A DNA stretch of 64,000 bases from Vulcanisaeta sp. AZ3. GTDB lineage: Archaea; Thermoproteota; Thermoprotei; Thermoproteales; Thermocladiaceae. The translations under genes were made by a program, and so were the position numbers. The notes beneath the pieces are model-generated. The model saw nothing but the letters and a program-made list of their open reading frames with translations, was not told the DNA's origin and made no database searches. Position 1 is the first letter of the stretch, and the number at the start of each line of letters is the position of its first letter. The stretch is taken from positions 1 to 64,000 of the forward strand of contig JZWU02000005.1 of the NCBI GenBank assembly GCA_000960865.2. The letters run 5' to 3'. Positions 14,051 to 36,373 of the stretch are shown here, in pieces.

Positions 14051-15232
14051 TTAAGGTTGCTGTGGAGAATATTTATTGCTCATCAAATCCCTTATTATTT
14101 GCTTAATATCTCCCTCGGTAATCCTAAAACCCGCATCACCTAATTCCTTAATTCTCTCTAGTATTTTATTTACTAAGACCTCGTGGGGCTCAATGCCCAT
14201 AGACCTAAGTACGAATTCTACAGAATGCCTACCACTATGCTTACCAATCACTATTTTACGGTTCATGCCAACACTCTCTGGACTTATTGGCTCATAAGTA
14301 ATCGGGTTGGATAACACACCATGTACGTGTATTCCAGATTCGTGAGAGAAGGCATTGGCACCAACAATGGCCTTATTCGGCGGCACTGGTATTTTAAACA
14401 ACCTAGATACCAAATCAGAGACTTCCTTTATCTTCTCGAACTTAATTCCAACGTTATAGTTTAACAGGAATTTCACGGCAGCTGCAATCTCCTCAAGTGC
14501 CGCATTACCAGCTCTCTCCCCAACACCGTTTATTGTACCATGCACTTGATCAGCCCCAGCCTCTATAGCTGTCACGCTATTGGCAACTGCCATTCCGAAG
14601 TCATCATGACAATGAACACTCAATAAATAATCACCCTTAACATTCTCCTTGACAAAACTAACAAGCCAAGCCATCTTACTCGGCCACATAACGCCCACCG
14701 TGTCGGCAATATCCAACCTATCAGCACCTGCATTAACAACCTCCTGGAAAACCCTTACGAGGAACTGCGGATCACTCCTAGTTGCATCCTCTGCACTAAA
14801 CTCCACAATCATACCATGAGACTTTGCGTATTCTACAGCTTCTACGGCGGTACTAACCACCTTCTCCCTATTCATCTTCAACTTATACTTCATGTGTATG
14901 TCTGATGTAGCTATGAAGATGTGTACAGCTCCAACGTCAGCATCAATGACCCTATTGATATCCTCTCTTCTCGTCCTAGCCAGAGCTATGACCTCGGTAT
15001 CAGTGACCTCCCTCGCTATATCCTTAACGGCCCTAAACTCACCATCGCTTACTATTGGAAAGCCAGCCTCTATTGAGTCAACACCCAACTCTTCAAGCTT
15101 AAGGGCTATGGCCAATTTATCCTCAGACCTCAGGGCAACACCAGGAGTTTGTTCGCCATCCCTTAGTGTCGTATCTAAGAACCTAACGTACCTACCACCT
15201 ACCGAACCCTGAACTACATTTTCCTGAGCAAT
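14051..15232 (-). CDS. leuA: 2-isopropylmalate synthase, short form without C-terminal regulatory domain; frame begins at ATT 15232
   Basis: DTTLRDGEQTPG lies upstream of the ORF-track start (15115); HCHDD, GERAGN and HESGIH motifs; adjacent to ilv/leu genes. Confidence 0.88.
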   Translation of the reverse strand: MAQENVVQGSVGGRYVRFLDTTLRDGEQTPGVALRSEDKLAIALKLEELGVDSIEAGFPIVSDGEFRAVKDIAREVTDTEVIALARTRREDINRVIDADVGAVHIFIATSDIHMKYKLKMNREKVVSTAVEAVEYAKSHGMIVEFSAEDATRSDPQFLVRVFQEVVNAGADRLDIADTVGVMWPSKMAWLVSFVKENVKGDYLLSVHCHDDFGMAVANSVTAIEAGADQVHGTINGVGERAGNAALEEIAAAVKFLLNYNVGIKFEKIKEVSDLVSRLFKIPVPPNKAIVGANAFSHESGIHVHGVLSNPITYEPISPESVGMNRKIVIGKHSGRHSVEFVLRSMGIEPHEVLVNKILERIKELGDAGFRITEGDIKQIIRDLMSNKYSPQQP

Positions 15233-15373
15233 CTATCCCACCAAACCTTAACTAAAAATACTCTATTTAAGCTTTATTCTAAGAGAAATATATTAATGAG
15301 AATCACGATAATAAACAATATATTTAGTTATGATGAAGAAAAACTTAAATATTCTATAGTTGACTTCCACCTG

Positions 15374-15400
15374 ATGAGGTGCTTTATTCTTTACGTATAA
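15374..15400 (+). promoter_or_regulatory. Putative ilv leader peptide MRCFILYV*
   Basis: ATG about 30 nt after the CTTAAATA TATA box; its 8 codons include Ile, Leu and Val. Confidence 0.65.
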
Positions 15401-15483
15401 GGGAAATAGAGAACGGAAATCAAAAGTCCACTCAATCAATGCCTCAGGAGAACATGAGTACAATTTGTGCCTAGGTGATCAAC

Positions 15484-17205
15484 ATGCCCCGAGCGGTTGA
15501 TTTATTAGTTAAAGAAATGGAGAGTATGGGCGTCGATAAGATTTTCGGTATAATAGGTGGGCAAATAATGCCATTCTATGATGCGCTGTATAATACCAAT
15601 ATTAAGGTCTACATGTTTAGACATGAACAAGGCGCAGTGCACGCTGCTGATGCCTATGGTAGAGTCACTAAGAGACCCATGACAGTGATAGTTACATCAG
15701 GACCGGGAGCAGCTAATCTCGTCACAGGGCTTGCTAATGCAATGATGGATTCGTCACCTCTAATAGCCATAACAGGGCAGGTACCTACGATCTTCTTTGG
15801 TAGGGATACGTTTCAAGAGACAGATATAGTGGGTACAACTATGCCAATAACTAAGCATACATTCATGGTTAAGAGACCAGAGGACCTTGTCCCGGCGTAT
15901 AAGGCCGCCTATGAGGTGAGTATTGATGGTAGGCCAGGCCCTGTGCTTATAGATATGCCGAGAGATGTTCAACTATCTGAAGTTAGTGAGAATTGTAGAA
16001 TGAGGATGATTAAGGTGTTTAAGATGGTTATACCTGAACCAGACCCATCACTCGTAGCCTATGCCCTTAAACTCTTACTCAATGCAGAGAGGCCTGTGAT
16101 GTTTGTGGGTGGTGGTGTTTGTTGGAGTGGTGCAACTAATGAGGTATTAACACTTGCTGAATTGATAGGAATGCCCATAGTCACCACATTACCCGGTAAG
16201 AATTGCGTGCCTAGTAATCATCCATTAGTAATGGGTCCGGCGGGCATGCATGGTAGGCTTGAGGCTGATGCTGCTTTGATAAATGCAGACGCGGTACTCG
16301 CCGTTGGTACTAGATTCAGTGATAGGACCGTGGGAAATTTCCAAGAGTTCAGTAGGGGTAGAAAAATTATTCACATAGATATTGACAAGAGCGAGATTGG
16401 GAAGAATGTAAAGCCTGATGTTGGTATTGTTGGCGATGCTAAGACTGTACTATCTATGATGATAGATATACTACCAAAAGCCCTAAAGAGAAGGCATGAG
16501 AAGTTTATAAGTTGGCTAAGGAGTATTAAGGAGGGCTTTGAAAAGTATAGGAATGAGCTGCCCTTCGAGGGATTCGCAGCATGGAGAATCTTGAAGGTTC
16601 TCCGTGAGGTTATACCACCCAATGCAATAACGGTAACTGGTGTAGGTAGTCACCAGATGTGGAGTGAACTTCATTGGGATGTTTATGTACCTGGTACCTT
16701 CATAACAAGCGCGGGCCTGGGTACAATGGGCTTTGGAATACCAGCCGCTCTAGGCGCAAAGATAGCTAGACCAGATGTTCCGGTGCTTGACATTGATGGT
16801 GATGGATCATTCCAAATGACATTGCAGAACTTAGCCCTAGTTCGTGAGTATAATTTACCAATAATAATCACGATATTTGATAACTCAGCGCTCATGCTGG
16901 TTAGGCATTGGCAGGTCATGCTTTATAGCAGGAGAATCATTGCAGTAGACTTTAACTTCAATCCAGACTTCATGAAGATCGCCGAGGCTTATGGCATAGA
17001 AGGCATTAGACCGGGTAGCTATGAGGAGTTAAGGGTTGCAGTAGCAAGGGCTGTTAGAAACAGTGAACCTCTCATAGTCGATGTAACTATCGATAGAGAA
17101 AAAGACCTTGTGCTTCCTTTCGTCCCTTCAGGTAAGTGGTTAGAGGAGGTAATAATGCCCGAGGGATTTCACGTAAATCTGAGGTATATGGGTGATGGAC
17201 AATGA
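15484..17205 (+). CDS. ilvB: Acetolactate synthase large subunit
   Basis: RHEQGA, TSGPG, FQE and GDGS TPP motifs; SD AGGTGA before ATG 15484. Confidence 0.93.
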   Translation: MPRAVDLLVKEMESMGVDKIFGIIGGQIMPFYDALYNTNIKVYMFRHEQGAVHAADAYGRVTKRPMTVIVTSGPGAANLVTGLANAMMDSSPLIAITGQVPTIFFGRDTFQETDIVGTTMPITKHTFMVKRPEDLVPAYKAAYEVSIDGRPGPVLIDMPRDVQLSEVSENCRMRMIKVFKMVIPEPDPSLVAYALKLLLNAERPVMFVGGGVCWSGATNEVLTLAELIGMPIVTTLPGKNCVPSNHPLVMGPAGMHGRLEADAALINADAVLAVGTRFSDRTVGNFQEFSRGRKIIHIDIDKSEIGKNVKPDVGIVGDAKTVLSMMIDILPKALKRRHEKFISWLRSIKEGFEKYRNELPFEGFAAWRILKVLREVIPPNAITVTGVGSHQMWSELHWDVYVPGTFITSAGLGTMGFGIPAALGAKIARPDVPVLDIDGDGSFQMTLQNLALVREYNLPIIITIFDNSALMLVRHWQVMLYSRRIIAVDFNFNPDFMKIAEAYGIEGIRPGSYEELRVAVARAVRNSEPLIVDVTIDREKDLVLPFVPSGKWLEEVIMPEGFHVNLRYMGDGQ

Positions 17206-17483
17206 ATAGGGACTTCTCGATAGATATCATGATGAATAACGAGGTTAACCCACTAGACGCTGTGGTTAGAGCTATGAATATTGTCAGAAGAGGTAAGATT
17301 ATCGTTAAGAACATACTAATTGATATGAATGATTCAACAATTAAGGTCTCCATGAGGATCGCGGGTGATGAGGATGAGGTCAAGTGGGTCTGTAATAAGC
17401 TTGATAAGCTCTATGATGTGACAAAAGTTAAATATACACAGGTAGAACTACAAAGTAAAGCATTGGTGGTGAATAATGGCTAG
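17202..17483 (+). CDS. ACT-domain acetolactate synthase small subunit-like protein
   Basis: Lies between ilvB and ilvC; C-terminal [11 protein letters not shown] pattern. Confidence 0.75.
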
Positions 17484-18459
17484 GATATACAAGGATGAGG
17501 ACGTAGACCTATCGATACTAAATGGAAAGATAGTGGCTATACTCGGCTATGGAATTCAGGGCAGGGCTTGGGCGCTTAATATGAGAGATAGTGGCGTAAG
17601 GGTTATTGTTGGTGTTAGGCCGGGTAGGAGTTTCGATTTAGCTAGACAAGAGGGTTTTGAAGTTTATCCTGTGACTGAGGCTGTTAGAAGAGCTGATATA
17701 ATTGCCGTATTACTTCCTGATATGGCGCAACCTACCGTGTGGCGTAAGGAGATAGAACCAAACCTAAAGCCTGGTTCCACAGTAGTTTTTGCACATGGAT
17801 TCAATATAAGGTTTGGTCTCATAAAGCCTCCAGGTAATGTTGATGTTGTACTGCTTGCACCTAAAGCACCTGGTAAGGCTGTTAGGGATGAGTTTATGAG
17901 AAGTTGGGGTGTACCTGCCCTAGTGGCTGTTTATCAGGACTATACAGGTAATGCGTTCAAGACAGTGTTAGCCTTGGCTAAAGCCAATGGACATACTAGG
18001 GTTGGTGTCATTGAGACGACATTTGCTGAAGAGACAGAGACTGACTTGATTGGTGAGCAGACGGTCCTTGTTGGAGGCTTAATGGAACTTATTAAGAGGG
18101 GATTTGAGGTTATGGTGGAGCTTGGCTATCAGCCTGAGGTTGCTTACTTTGAGGTATTAAATGAGGCTAAGCTAATAATGGATTTAATATGGGAAAAAGG
18201 GTTAACGGGCATGTTGCTTGGGGTTAGTGAGACTGCGAGATATGGTGGATTAACCGTGGGTCCGCAGGTGATTAATGATGATGTTAAGAGAAGAATGAAG
18301 GAGGCTGCGGAGAGAGTTAGGAATGGAGAGTTCGCTAAGGAGTGGGTTGAGGAGTATGGTAAAGGAGCCCCAAGGCTTAGTGAGTTGCTAGACAGGATTA
18401 AGAATCATGAAATTGAAAAGGTAGGTAATGAGATAAGGAGAATGATGAGAAGTGGATAG
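17476..18459 (+). CDS. ilvC: Ketol-acid reductoisomerase
   Basis: GYGIQG, FAHGF, APKAPG and [10 protein letters not shown] motifs. Confidence 0.95.
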
Positions 18460-20373: not shown

Positions 20374-21049
20374 AACACATTATGTATATATGCCTTTTAA
20401 AGATTACACTGTATATATCGATATGGTCCTAATTAATTCAATATAATACAAATATGCGATCTAAAAAATCAATATAAGTTCTTGATATAATTGTAAGGGA
20501 TTATGTATAAGCAGCTAATATATTTTTATATTAAAATGATGGTATTATGAATAGCATTACTCCTCAGTGATGAATTACATAGAGAACGGTCGATAAACTC
20601 AGATCCCTAAAAAGGTATTTTTAACCATGCCTTGAGTAAATTATTGTAAAGTCATTAATAGTGTAACGATAGAGAGTTTGAATATAGCTACTAAATGTAC
20701 TCTGTCTGAATTTAATAAAGTGAAACTTATAGACCACGTTACTAAATGGAGTTAGAAATATGAAGAGAACAGTTAAGGCTTTCATAGAGTTTTCTAACGA
20801 AAGAACTAAGAGCTATCCATGGATATCACAATGACAAGTATCACAGGACTCTTCGATAATTTTAATTGCTACACACCTAAAATTTAATAATTATAATATT
20901 ACAAGGTAAGCAATAGAATTGGTATGGAGTATTCATAATTGATTAATAATTATTAATTTTGATATTTATGCTATGATCGTGAATATATATTTTTCTGGGA
21001 AAGGTAAATTTTAAATAGGTAGTATGCACGTGCCTATATAGGTGACTGG

Positions 21050-22176
21050 ATGGAAATGGAAACCAAGTACTAGATAGAGGCCTTTGGATTTCAAAGGTTG
21101 GGGGTTCCCTACTAACGAGAAAATCAACTCTTAGAACTATAAGCAGTGTTATTGGGAGAGATCTAAAGCCTGGCAGTAGATTAATCCTTGTGGTTTCAGC
21201 AATGAAGGGGGTAACGGACTTACTTATCAGAGCTCTAGATGAGCATAATCCTGCATTTATAGATGAAGCTGTGTCGATGTATGTTGATGAGGCGTTATAT
21301 CTTGAGTTAAAATCATATGCTAAGTTTCTGGAGTTTGTTAATGAGGAATTACGTAGGTTTGTGAATATAGATGAACCCTGGGTTAAGGATCATACTATTG
21401 TTCATGGAGAGTTATTGTCATCATTGCTTGTTGAGGGTATCTTAAATGATATAATTGGTGTTAGGGCTAAGGCGGTTTATGAACCTGGAATAGTGGTTAA
21501 GCAAGAGTGGGGTAATGCAAGTGTTATTCATGAGCTGAGTAATACCTTTGTTCGTGAAAGGTATGATGGATTGATTAGGAAGTACGATGTTGTAGTTGTA
21601 CCTGGATTCTTGGGTGTGACGTTGGATGGTAGGTATGCATCGTTGGGTAGGGGCGGCAGTGATTACACAGCTTCGTTGCTTGCTAACTATCTGAGTGCCT
21701 CAGGGCTGACGTTCTATACAGACAGTGGCGGTCTACTTAGTGGTGATCCTAAGGTTGTGAATGATCCTGTGCTCATTAGGGAGGTTTGTTATGAGGAGGC
21801 TTATGCGGCTGCGATGGTTGGCGCTAAGAAGTTCCATCCAAGGACCTTTGAACCATTACTTAATAGTAATGTTAGGATGTTAATAACAAGCCCGTGGCTT
21901 GATGTCGGTACTTATATAACTAATAAGTGTATTGACACACCTAAAATAGTTAGTCTTAGCGGTGATGGAAGGTCTCTTAAGGTTTCTGTGGTGGGTTATA
22001 ATGCAGCTAAGAGGGAAGATGTATTCAGTGAGGTTTATACTATTGCATCCTCGTACGGTATAAACAGTATTACGCATGATAACGATCACGTACTATCCAT
22101 GCCTGTGGATGATTATAAAATAGCATTAACCCTCGTTAGAGATATACATAGGTGGGTGAGAAAATGGATAAGTTGA
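21050..22176 (+). CDS. Aspartate kinase; ATG 21050 is out of frame and the kinase frame is reached by -1
   Basis: KVGGS (21094-21108) lies upstream of the first in-frame canonical start (21190); [15 protein letters not shown] and DP motifs. Confidence 0.88.
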
Positions 22177-24158: not shown

Positions 24159-24256
24159 GTTACTTAATATTATTGTGTTTATTTAAAATATTACTGTTAC
24201 TCAATACCCTATTTACCTAATGGTAATGCTTAAATATCCCATTAATTATCCATATA

Positions 24257-25491
24257 ATGGGGATTGAAATGGAAACCAGGAATTAATAAGAAGGTCTCTA
24301 GACAAGTATGTACTTAAGTGCCCAAGGTGTGGCTATGAGGTTGAGGCAAATCCGTTCATAATGAGGTGCCCAAGGTGTGGTGAATTACTTGATGCTGAGT
24401 TAATAGCCGAAATGATTCATATTAGGTGGGATAGGCTGCACGGTAGGGGTGTTTGGAGATATGAGAGATTGCTTCCTAGATTAAATAGTGTGGTCACTAT
24501 GGGTGAAGGATCAACACCATTAATAAGACTCAAACAATTCTCTAATGCTTATGTTAAGTTTGAGGGGCTGAATCCAACGGGTTCCTTTAAGGATAGAGGA
24601 ATGACAATTGGTACATCATTAGCTTTAGCAATAGGTGCAAGAGGGATAATTGTGGCGTCTACAGGGAATACTGCAGCCTCGGCGGCAGCTTATTCAGCTA
24701 GGGCAGGCCTTGAGTGCTTGGTAGTGCTTCCTAGGGGTGGTGTGGCTAGGGGTAAGTTGGCTCAGTCTATGTTGCATAATGCACGTATATTAGAGGTTAC
24801 TGGGACCTTCGATAATGCCTTGGAGTATGTGCTGGATTCCGTGTTGAGTAATGGTGCTGTTAATGGTGTTAATTACTATCCACTTAACTCAATAAATCCA
24901 TGGAGACTAGAGGGTCAGAAAACAATTGCATATGAAATCGTTGAGGAGCTTGGTGTCCCTGACTTTGTGTTTGTTCCTGTGGGTAATGGCGGTAATATTT
25001 ACGCTATTTGGAAGGGATTTAGAGAATTGGTGGAGCTTGGTGTGATCGATCGTGTACCAAGGATGATGGGGGTGCAGGCTGAGGGGGCTAATCCAATGGT
25101 TAGGTATTGGAGAGGGCTTGGTGAGGCTAAGATTGAGAATCCGAGGACTGTAGCCTCAGCAATAAGGATTGGCAAACCAATTAATTGGTTTAGAGCCTTC
25201 AGGGCCGTTAAGTATAGTAATGGCACCTTCCTGGAGGTTAGCGATGAAGAGATATTAAATGCCCAGAGAGTACTTGGTAGGGAGGGTATAGGTGTTGAGC
25301 CGGCTAGTGCAGCATCGCTGGCAGGTTACTTAAGGGCGTTAAAAGACGGTCTTGTGGATAGGAATGATAAAGTGGTGCTAATAGCCACAGGGCATGCTCT
25401 TAAAGATCCCGATATACTAACTATGGGGAATGCGCAGTTTATGAGGGTGTCATCAATCAATGAATTAAGAACGTTAATTGCCACTAAGTAA
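24257..25491 (+). CDS. thrC: Threonine synthase; ATG 24257/24269 are out of frame and the enzyme frame is reached by -1
   Basis: NPTGSFKDRG, ASTGNT, PVGNGGN and EPASA motifs; the first CPRC of the Zn ribbon (24319-24330) precedes the first in-frame ATG. Confidence 0.9.
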
Positions 25492-35187: not shown

Positions 35188-35292
35188 TGCATAATCTAGT
35201 TCTTTAGGGTATATATACATTATGTATACATGACATGGGTATTAGAATCTTAGGGGCAAAGCTTATAAAATATTTAGAATTACGGAGTGTGA

Positions 35293-36373
35293 ATGATTCG
35301 GATTAAGAAGACGCTACTTAGTACTTCAGGATGGAAGTATATATCGTGGTTATGCCTTTGGTGCTGATGGTAATGCCGTTGGGGAGGTCGTCTTCACAAC
35401 AGCTAACGTTGGCTATCCTGAATCACTCACAGATCCGTCGTATAAGGGGCAAATACTCATATTCACAATGCCGCTAATCGGCAATTACGGCGTATCGCCA
35501 GACCAATGGGAGAGCAGCTCAATTCAAGTTAGTGGTATAGTTGTATTTGATGTAACATCACCAAGCCATTATACGTCAATAATGAGTCTTGATGAGTGGT
35601 TAAGGAGGGATGGTATACCTGGTGTCTTTAGGGTTGATACGAGGGCTATAACTATCAAGTTAAGGGAGCTGGGTGTTATGATGGGCGCTATAGCTGATAA
35701 TCCGGCTGAGGGGTTTAGGTTGATTAGAAGTGCTCCTCGTTATGATGATTTTGATTTCGTAAAGCTCGTGTCACCAAGTGACATAATTAATTATGATAAT
35801 AATGATGGACCATGTATAGGTATTGTGGATTGTGGCGTAAAAATGGGTATTGTGAGAAACTTACTAGCAAGAGGCGTTAGGGTTGTTAGATATCCTTGTC
35901 ATATGTGGTCCAGGGTTATTAACGAATGCGACGGTGTCGTCTTAAGCAACGGTCCAGGCAACCCAAATCTCTTGAACTTTCTCATAGATGCCGTGACAGA
36001 CATAATTATGGATAGAAAGCCAACCCTAGGTATATGCCTAGGTCACCAAGTAATAGCCCTTGGTGTGGGGGCGAGACTTTATAAGATGAAGTATGGACAC
36101 AGAGCGATAAACAAGCCTGTGCTAGACTTAATTAGGGGAAGAGTCTACGTGACAACTCACAACCATGGTTATGCTGTAGATCCGCAATCAATAAAGGGTA
36201 CGGGCTTTAAGATATGGGCAGTACAACCCGATGATAAGACTGTAGAGGGTTTGATACATGAGAAGTTACCAATAATAACTACGCAATTCCATCCAGAGGC
36301 TAGGCCTGGGCCCAATGATACTACTTGGATCTTTGATGAGTTCATAAAGTTAGTGATGAGGTATGGACATTAG
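35293..36373 (+). CDS. carA: Carbamoyl-phosphate synthase small subunit; ATG 35293 is out of frame and the enzyme frame is reached by +1
   Basis: YLVLQDG, GEVVFTT and GYPESLTDPSYKGQI all lie upstream of the first in-frame ATG (35468); SNGPGNP, GICLGHQ and QFHPE motifs. Confidence 0.9.

Follow-up and report, generated by a model that had tools for sequence, protein, structure and literature searches.

The leader peptides of the bacterial ilvBN, ilvGMEDA and leu operons act by ribosome-mediated transcription attenuation, with hairpins, a U-tract and runs of regulatory codons. Here we describe a short open reading frame (ORF), encoding MRCFILYV, that precedes the acetolactate synthase operon ilvBNC of the archaeon Vulcanisaeta sp. 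AZ3. It lies in a stretch of 64,000 nucleotides (nt) of contig JZWU02000005.1, which we call the window and to which positions refer unless another contig is named. Like the bacterial ilv and leu leaders, it is a short ORF upstream of a branched-chain operon, and its translation would report the supply of charged tRNA. Unlike them, it is archaeal and probably leaderless, has neither a terminator/antiterminator hairpin nor a U-tract, and holds one codon per amino acid; the output that we propose is a change of reading frame, not an RNA fold.

Such a change has its closest parallels in programmed +1 frameshifts. That of prfB takes place at CUU_UGA_C, with a Shine-Dalgarno (SD)-like element upstream at 3-nt spacing. 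For Ty1, the portion of a 2016 frameshifting review available to us gives the site CUU_AGG_C (PMC5009743). In both, as proposed here, slow decoding of the following codon lets the peptidyl-tRNA move forward from an NUU codon. The ilvB leader also shares with prfB an SD-like GAGGUG upstream of CUU_U, at a spacing of 7 nt here vs 3 in prfB. It differs from both systems in that the slow codon would be neither a stop nor one read by a rare tRNA but an ordinary sense codon, made slow when its amino acid is scarce, and the shifted product a spacer peptide without conserved sequence. A candidate frameshift inside an amino-acid operon leader peptide also has a counterpart in E. coli pheL, where +1 frameshifting at CCC_UGA was judged incidental, with no effect on pheA, in the accessible part of that study (PMC3082878). 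Unlike in pheL, selection appears to hold the frame downstream of the ilvB leader open and to place its end at the start of the gene. This end, a +1-frame stop at an SD-preceded start codon (as ATGA, or at +5 or +14), resembles the termination-reinitiation of overlapping gene pairs in archaea and bacteria, as outlined in the available parts of two reports (PMC6728339, PMC10666635). Here, unlike in the usual pairs, the upstream "gene" would be reachable only by a frameshift.

Programmed frameshifting by a crenarchaeal ribosome, as we propose it, recalls fucA1, whose shift motif is the classical A_AAA_AAT heptamer; unlike the ilvB leader, fucA1 is no sensor, its shift joining two enzyme halves. 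This gene of Saccharolobus solfataricus is the only -1 frameshift case reported in Archaea according to a 2021 review of archaeal recoding, which in the part available to us makes no mention of Pyrobaculum (PMC8211752). Leaderless short ORFs upstream of amino-acid operons, sensing the cognate amino acid, are known from the polycysteine ORFs of mycobacteria; those are bacterial, contain runs of the sensed codon and, in the available part of the preprint, come with no proposal of a frameshift (bioRxiv 10.1101/834739). On hungry-codon frameshifting with starvation-specific products, the available portion of the 2016 review speaks of "no examples known" (PMC5009743). Our full-text literature search, which covered articles without their supplements, returned no report of an archaeal ilvB leader, of frameshift-based amino-acid sensing, or of leader-peptide control of an archaeal amino-acid operon. 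The gap concerns how hyperthermophiles could sense the supply of charged tRNA without stable RNA hairpins.

We propose that the leader senses hungry codons by a +1 frameshift and is coupled to ilvB through termination-reinitiation, a reading to which we assign a probability of roughly 0.55. Transcription would start at or beside the leader ATG, and ribosomes would initiate on the leaderless AUG; most of them would finish MRCFILYV, terminate at codon 9 and leave. When Leu-tRNA, perhaps also Ile-tRNA, is short, the ribosome would wait at the Leu codon, and the peptidyl-tRNA on the preceding NUU codon would slip one base forward onto UUC. The shifted ribosome would then read the stop-free +1 frame across the spacer and terminate on or just inside the ilvB start, where the SD would hold it for reinitiation. 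In this way the leader RNA would stay ribosome-covered rather than naked. A ribosome on nascent archaeal RNA may protect against factor-dependent termination. Frameshifting, its exact site, its dependence on aminoacyl-tRNA supply and reinitiation as the output are what we infer from the comparison of sequences.

The leader ORF occupies positions 15374-15400 of the forward strand (frame 0) and is probably the 5' end of the mRNA. It reads ATG (15374-76), AGG, TGC, TTT, ATT, CTT, TAC and GTA, with the stop TAA (15398-400) as codon 9, 83 nt from ilvB; a second frame-0 stop, TAG at 15407-15409 (+), would back up the termination of unshifted ribosomes. The original prediction had located the leader, with its Ile, Leu and Val codons, correctly to the nucleotide and had noted the further frame-0 stop. 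It had also called the leader leaderless, which is plausible: the promoter, a conserved block at 15340-15351 (+), consists of a purine-rich AAAA resembling a transcription factor B recognition element and the TATA box CTTAAATA (15344-51), and the gap from the latter to the leader ATG is 22 nt, the modal value of the genome. Genome-wide, the distance between a TATA-like 8-mer and the start of a long ORF peaks at 22 nt (18 cases, with 61 cases at 21-25 nt), so the mini-ORF sits where a leaderless gene would start. We placed the transcription start by this promoter geometry. The motif AAAA(G/A)CTTAAATA is kept in the alignment of all 11 Vulcanisaeta loci, and in 15/15 loci of Vulcanisaeta and Caldivirga 22-24 nt separate the TATA box from the leader ATG. 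The ilvB gene itself is preceded by the SD GGTGAT (15474-15479, +), 4 nt before its ATG, and a GGTG core is present within 14 nt of the ilvB start in 19/19 family loci. Since an SD motif of this type accompanies only 201 of the 1282 long ORFs of the genome, its presence is consistent with ilvB not being the first gene of the transcript. A search for a second promoter found a TATA-like motif in L007 alone among the loci; the spacer in the window has none.

We found ilvB in 38 of the 41 related genomes searched. The leader is part of a 24-nt block, ATGAGGTRYYYTATTCTYYAMGTA, present in the 11/11 Vulcanisaeta and Caldivirga loci of this search and in 4/4 further Vulcanisaeta fragments (15/15 together), and both flanks of the block diverge among relatives. 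A pattern search of metagenomes matched 22 stretches, of which 21 were readable; all 21 lie upstream of ilvB, the only place at which we found the motif. The peptide occurs as MRCFILYV, MRYFILYVQ, MRCFILQVQ, MRCPILYV or MRC(L/F)ILYVR and always ends after 8-9 codons, with TAA, TGA or TAG as its stop. Two more genera, g3 and g4 (g1 being Vulcanisaeta and g2 Caldivirga), carry other leaders at the same position, (M)ICFLIKY... and MSLLCPI..., respectively; the start of the g3 leader was chosen by similarity, and the open frame there begins exactly at the TGA of that start. Between Vulcanisaeta and Caldivirga, whose IlvB proteins are only 73-75% identical, the third codon positions of the leader are nearly invariant, which points to a constraint on the nucleotides and not on the peptide alone. 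The comparison supports the view of the mini-ORF as a genuine leader of ilvBNC, conserved and close to the promoter. As a separate observation, one Vulcanisaeta fragment (L037) has a second copy of ATGAGGTGC 65 nt upstream of the ilvB leader, followed by five Ile codons (MRCIIIIIRGKSLNIL, then a stop); this copy overlaps the TATA box and is found only in that lineage.

Of central importance to our proposal is the +1 frame between leader and ilvB. In the window it forms a connecting ORF of 40 codons (15378-15500, +), which opens after TGA 15375-77, within the ATGAGG of the leader start, and closes at TGA 15498-500, 14 nt into ilvB (ATG 15484); its first start codon is TTG 15465. The -1 frame opens at 15364 and runs up to TAG 15472-74, a stop overlapping the SD of ilvB, and we judge its stretch from GTG 15379 onward (15379-15474, +) to be a product of chance. 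Both shifted frames are thus open in this sequence, up to the very stops given in the original prediction. Taken by itself, this is not beyond chance, dinucleotide shuffles leaving the +1 frame open in 22% and the -1 frame in 23% of cases; by our analysis the +1 frame is significant only through comparison with relatives.

For this comparison there are 19 family loci with a separate ilvB start (11 from Vulcanisaeta, 4 from Caldivirga, 1 from g3 and 3 from g4). Their spacers measure 50-114 nt, vary in length and are largely unalignable between genera, and the frame of ilvB, counted from the leader, is 0 or 2. In all 19, which represent four genera, the +1 frame runs without a stop from the leader up to the ilvB start. 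Stop triplets located before the first canonical +1-frame start number 66, 0 and 19 in frames 0, +1 and -1 (53, 0 and 15 in the 14 non-redundant loci), and frame 0 has 2-9 stops in the spacer of every locus. The +1 frame stays open in 2-33% of dinucleotide shuffles per locus, and over six clearly separate lineages the multiplied probability is about 2e-6, such values not being simply multipliable because the loci are related. Relative to the ilvB start, the frame ends at +1 (as ATGA) in 6 loci, at +5 in 10 and at +14 in 3; in a twentieth locus (L018, from g4) the +1 frame and the frame of ilvB are identical.

Entry into this frame seems equally restricted. An A follows the leader start codon in all four genera, placing a TGA at the head of the +1 frame (A/GTGA), and the frame is therefore not enterable from upstream. 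In L002, L007 and L011 there is no ATG, GTG or TTG anywhere in the +1 frame, which together with the TGA means that entry must come from the leader. The -1 frame reaches the SD or start of ilvB in 8/19 loci and closes early in the other 11, with stops 29-41 nt past the leader stop in 6 of them and likewise early in 5 more. It had been predicted that a slip in either direction would bring ribosomes to ilvB, with conservation of the open frames in relatives as a check: the +1 half of this prediction held, the frame being open in all 19 loci and ending at the ilvB start, and the -1 route did not. An antisense check found no reverse-strand frame that is open in all loci. The +1-frame spacer peptide is not conserved, and since the frame also lacks a coding-like codon bias, selection appears to act on the passage of ribosomes through it and not on the product.

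Our candidate +1 shift site is AUU_CUU at 15386-15391 (+), inside the "slippery run" to which the original prediction had pointed. A motif NUU_C followed by a Leu codon is common to 20/20 family loci in all four genera: AUU_CUU in Vulcanisaeta and Caldivirga (AUU_CUC in L006), UUU_CUC in g3 and CUU_CUC in g4, with ATT CT invariant in the 15/15 loci of the first two genera. By slipping forward, the P-site tRNA would come to lie on UUC, where re-pairing is perfect for a Phe tRNA and good for a Leu tRNA, the cases of g3 and g4. Secondary candidates on the same strand are UUU_AUU (15383-88) and CUU_UAC (15389-94), the former of which would add an Ile-sensing site in Vulcanisaeta and Caldivirga. 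The predicted sensing of three amino acids is not supported, as only the Leu codon, and in these two genera the Ile codon, comes after a shift-prone codon. Leu-GAG, Leu-UAG and Phe-GAA are among the only 19 tRNAs that ARAGORN found in the assembly, a number too small for isoacceptors to be judged.

A similar arrangement is found at carA, for the small subunit of carbamoyl-phosphate synthase (ORF 35297-36370, +; start region 35262-35310; TIGR01368 passed). From a leaderless ATG at 35293, 23 nt past a TATA box, the sequence reads ATG ATT CGG; the enzyme is encoded in the +1 frame, which begins directly after the TGA of the ATGA and has no canonical start for 175 nt. The nine Vulcanisaeta loci read ATG ATT CGG in eight cases and ATG CTT CGG in one, the latter without the TGA; an AUU_C or CUU_C context thus precedes the +1-frame carA ORF in 9/9, matching the AUU_C of the ilvB leader. 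Codons 2-3 of the enzyme frame differ among loci mostly by synonymous changes (GGA/GGC/GGT/GGG and TTA/TTG/CTA; one locus has TAT), which indicates that they are translated in the enzyme frame; they lie upstream of any obligatory start, and the frame-0 codon after CGG is not conserved. CGG makes up 1% of the Arg codons in the genome. The design is Ty1-like, an Arg codon before an arginine-pathway gene, and the CUU_CGG of one relative comes close to the CUU_AGG_C of Ty1. We consider carA a candidate +1 frameshift that may sense arginine. Coupling through a stop that overlaps a start also occurs nearby: carA of Caldivirga has an upstream ORF MMGRA that ends in ATGA (4/4 loci), and in several Vulcanisaeta thrC loci an ORF METQA likewise ends in ATGA. 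Two naive genome-wide scans for a mini-ORF with an open frame returned mostly noise; a stricter one gave 27 rows, including the carA, thrC, aspartate kinase, trpB2 and leuA-like cases.

In the sister family of Pyrobaculum and Thermoproteus (genus g8, which we take to be Thermoproteus), five amino-acid genes are encoded in the -1 frame relative to a leaderless mini-ORF in which the cognate codon comes after G_GGG, and most of them have no start codon of their own. At ilvB (L015-L036), Val and Leu codons follow G_GGG in 18/18 loci, and 12 of these have a third G_GGG site (Ile in 11, Val in 1), so that 47/47 sites stand before V, L or I; in 14/18 loci there is no canonical in-frame start. A Thr codon follows G_GGG at thrC in 10/10 loci (L092-L101; 7 by script, 3 by reading the sequence), and an Arg codon at carA in 10/10 (L158-L170), one of which also has an in-frame ATG. 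The codon is Trp in 2/2 trpB2 loci and Lys at the single homocitrate synthase (L124, L136 and L140 for these two genes). These cases were partly found by a pattern designed after seeing ilvB, in which the match between codon and pathway played no part. Over five sister-family genomes the pattern scan gave no more matches overall than a reversed control, and only matches with a long -1 ORF are informative. Database starts for Pyrobaculum IlvB are inconsistent, some being truncated and some odd or far upstream.

Together these loci suggest a control spread over the order Thermoproteales, to which we give even odds. In each case, the codon after a slippery codon of a leaderless mini-ORF would name the sensed amino acid, and hunger at that codon would shift the ribosome into the frame leading to the enzyme. 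In Pyrobaculum and Thermoproteus the ribosome would slip by -1 on G_GGG_N, with Val, Leu and Ile sensed at ilvB, Thr at thrC, Arg at carA, Trp at trpB2 and Lys at homocitrate synthase; Vulcanisaeta and its relatives would use a +1 slip on NUU_C, directly into the enzyme at carA (Arg) and by way of a connecting frame at ilvB (Leu). Such devices would take the place of hairpin attenuators, which would melt at 85-100 C. If true, this would be a form of control not previously described, a simple and heat-proof sensor design with a code readable from sequence, the slippery codon plus the sensed codon. It would also explain the start-less biosynthetic genes of Thermoproteales and their inconsistent database starts, and would correct their annotation.

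Several observations weigh against a frameshift sensor at ilvB. Re-pairing of the Ile tRNA from AUU to UUC has a first-position mismatch, and the Val codon follows no shift-prone codon. The codons of the leader are common ones (ATT 0.39, CTT 0.20, GTA 0.24) and the Leu codon in the A site is not rare; on this ground we rejected a rare-codon shift at the leader. The gene has its own strong SD, which makes uncoupled translation possible, and the predicted occlusion of this SD by the leader is not consistent over 14 loci (shuffle fractions between 0.07 and 1.00). No coding-like codon bias marks the +1 frame (log-ratios average -0.21, 0.00 and +0.10 for frames 0, +1 and -1 in the 15 loci of sufficient length), and the kinship of the 19 loci means that the multiplied shuffle probabilities overstate significance. 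Finally, the strong nucleotide-level conservation of the leader also fits a DNA operator at +1 to +24.

The leader could be translated and regulate without any frameshift, for example if stalling or termination altered the time for which the RNA is naked and thereby exposed to factor-dependent termination or decay, and the +1 frame could be entered at a non-canonical codon such as ACG 15393. This codon lies 11 nt past the SD-like GAGGTG, part of TGAGGTG at 15375-81, which is presumably complementary to the 3' end of 16S rRNA, and an ACG stands in the +1 frame in 14/15 Vulcanisaeta and Caldivirga loci. The leader is, moreover, conserved and promoter-adjacent, and unusual initiation may be common in a genome where several genes have no canonical start. 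We nevertheless hold regulation without a shift to be unlikely: g3 and g4 have no SD-like motif or near-cognate codon at a comparable place, yet their +1 frame is open from the leader start, and the carA and sister-family cases point to shifting over odd initiation.

The 24-nt block could instead be mainly a DNA operator, or the RNA site of a regulator, over the transcription start, with the ORF and the open +1 frame as by-products. Archaeal repressors commonly bind across the start site, and the nearly invariant third codon positions between two genera with 73-75% identical IlvB are what an operator would lead one to expect. This would leave unexplained why the +1 frame of the diverged spacers has none of the 85 stop triplets and why it ends at the ilvB start. 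The motif, too, is confined to ilvB in all readable metagenome matches, has no dyad symmetry that we could see beyond TACGTA, and keeps a leader stop by way of three different stop codons. As a full explanation we regard an operator as improbable; it could coexist with a frameshift device.

Classical transcription attenuation by a leader peptide, as in the bacterial ilvBN or leu operons, is suggested by the short ORF with Ile, Leu and Val codons upstream of ilvBNC and by one terminator-like hairpin with a T-rich tail at 15368-81. We rejected the latter as an attenuator, as the hairpin is not conserved and has its 5' arm ahead of the probable start of transcription. A simple sigma-70/terminator scan gave one promoter-like and one terminator-like match, no more than in shuffles. 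The original prediction saw no attenuator hairpin or U-tract, and the computations bear it out. Between leader and ilvB, no T run exceeds 3 nt here and the longest measures 2-4 nt in 19/19 family loci, and at 37 C, the temperature for which folding energies were computed, the 127-nt leader region has a minimum free energy (MFE) z-score of +0.80, with 155/200 shuffles folding at least as well. Rfam gave 0 matches up to E = 10 over 14500-16500 on both strands for riboswitches, T-boxes or known leaders. The MFE folds suggested an antiterminator-like pairing between the leader, which is rich in pyrimidines, and the purine-rich spacer; it was dropped as no better than with shuffled spacers, the shuffle fraction of the duplex falling below 0.05 in only 1/19 loci. 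No hairpin between leader and ilvB is conserved across the loci. With a single codon per amino acid as well, attenuation of this kind is very improbable. Caldivirga loci L007-L010 have a GC hairpin, GGGCC-N5-6-GGCCC, 3-10 nt past the leader stop; its loop is variable and it is absent from Vulcanisaeta.

An unremarkable mini-ORF with accidentally open frames, each of which would arise in about 22% of shuffles of this one sequence, is scarcely credible given a +1 frame open in 19/19 relatives, the figure for the six separate lineages and a leader conserved across genera.

The operon downstream of the leader comprises, all on the forward strand, ilvB for the large subunit of acetolactate synthase (15484-17205; Pfam TPP_enzyme_N/M/C), ilvN for its ACT-domain small subunit (17202-17483; ACT_5), whose start overlaps the ilvB stop, and ilvC for ketol-acid reductoisomerase (17476-18459; KARI_N/KARI_C). 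According to Pfam and NCBIfam, a leuC-like gene lies 3' of ilvBNC, and the opposite strand carries a divergent gene of the isopropylmalate synthase family and leuB.

The isopropylmalate-synthase-family gene (start region 15230-15271, reverse strand) has an odd start of its own. Its TATA box, CTTAAATA, is followed after 22 nt by GTG GGA TAG ATT GCT CAG, that is, by a leaderless-looking start, one codon, an in-frame TAG and then the conserved N-terminus. No ATG, GTG or TTG occurs before the LRDGEQ motif, and the gene would need an ATT start, reinitiation or read-through. The layout is kept in 6/6 Vulcanisaeta and 3/4 Caldivirga loci, the TAG being replaced by TGG in L009 and by TAC in g4. A locus of genus g12, from another family, resembles it: L033 has ATG AGT TAG before ilvB, in frame with the enzyme ORF. 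A second g12 locus, L032, reads ATG GGT CGG without interruption.

Three further genes have starts of an unusual kind. In threonine synthase (start region 24229-24361, +; TIGR00260 passed) no canonical start precedes the first CPRCG motif; the mini-ORF MGIEMETRN opens at ATG 24257, which is leaderless, and the enzyme is in the -1 frame of this mini-ORF. Its relatives keep (M/V)..E-T.. mini-ORFs with G_GAA_AC(C/A), and in some of them the mini-ORF stop overlaps the thrC ATG. At the TrpB2 gene, about 42923 of contig C10 (L144; TIGR01415 passed), a leaderless GTG opens the mini-ORF VVTIWVSINIE, which has one Trp codon; the enzyme is in the -1 frame relative to this mini-ORF, and the first canonical start of the gene is 317 nt downstream of the mini-ORF. 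An aspartate-kinase-like ORF (from 21046, region 21010-21073, +) has no canonical start before its K-V-G-G-S motif and overlaps GTG 21042, with the enzyme in +1, and ATG 21050 (MEMETKY, then a stop), with the enzyme in -1; in 2/11 Vulcanisaeta loci the region is 1 nt shorter, which brings the enzyme in frame with the GTG. A 20-nt element here, GGAT(T/G)GAAATGGAAACCA(G/A)G, is in this assembly shared only with the thrC leader.

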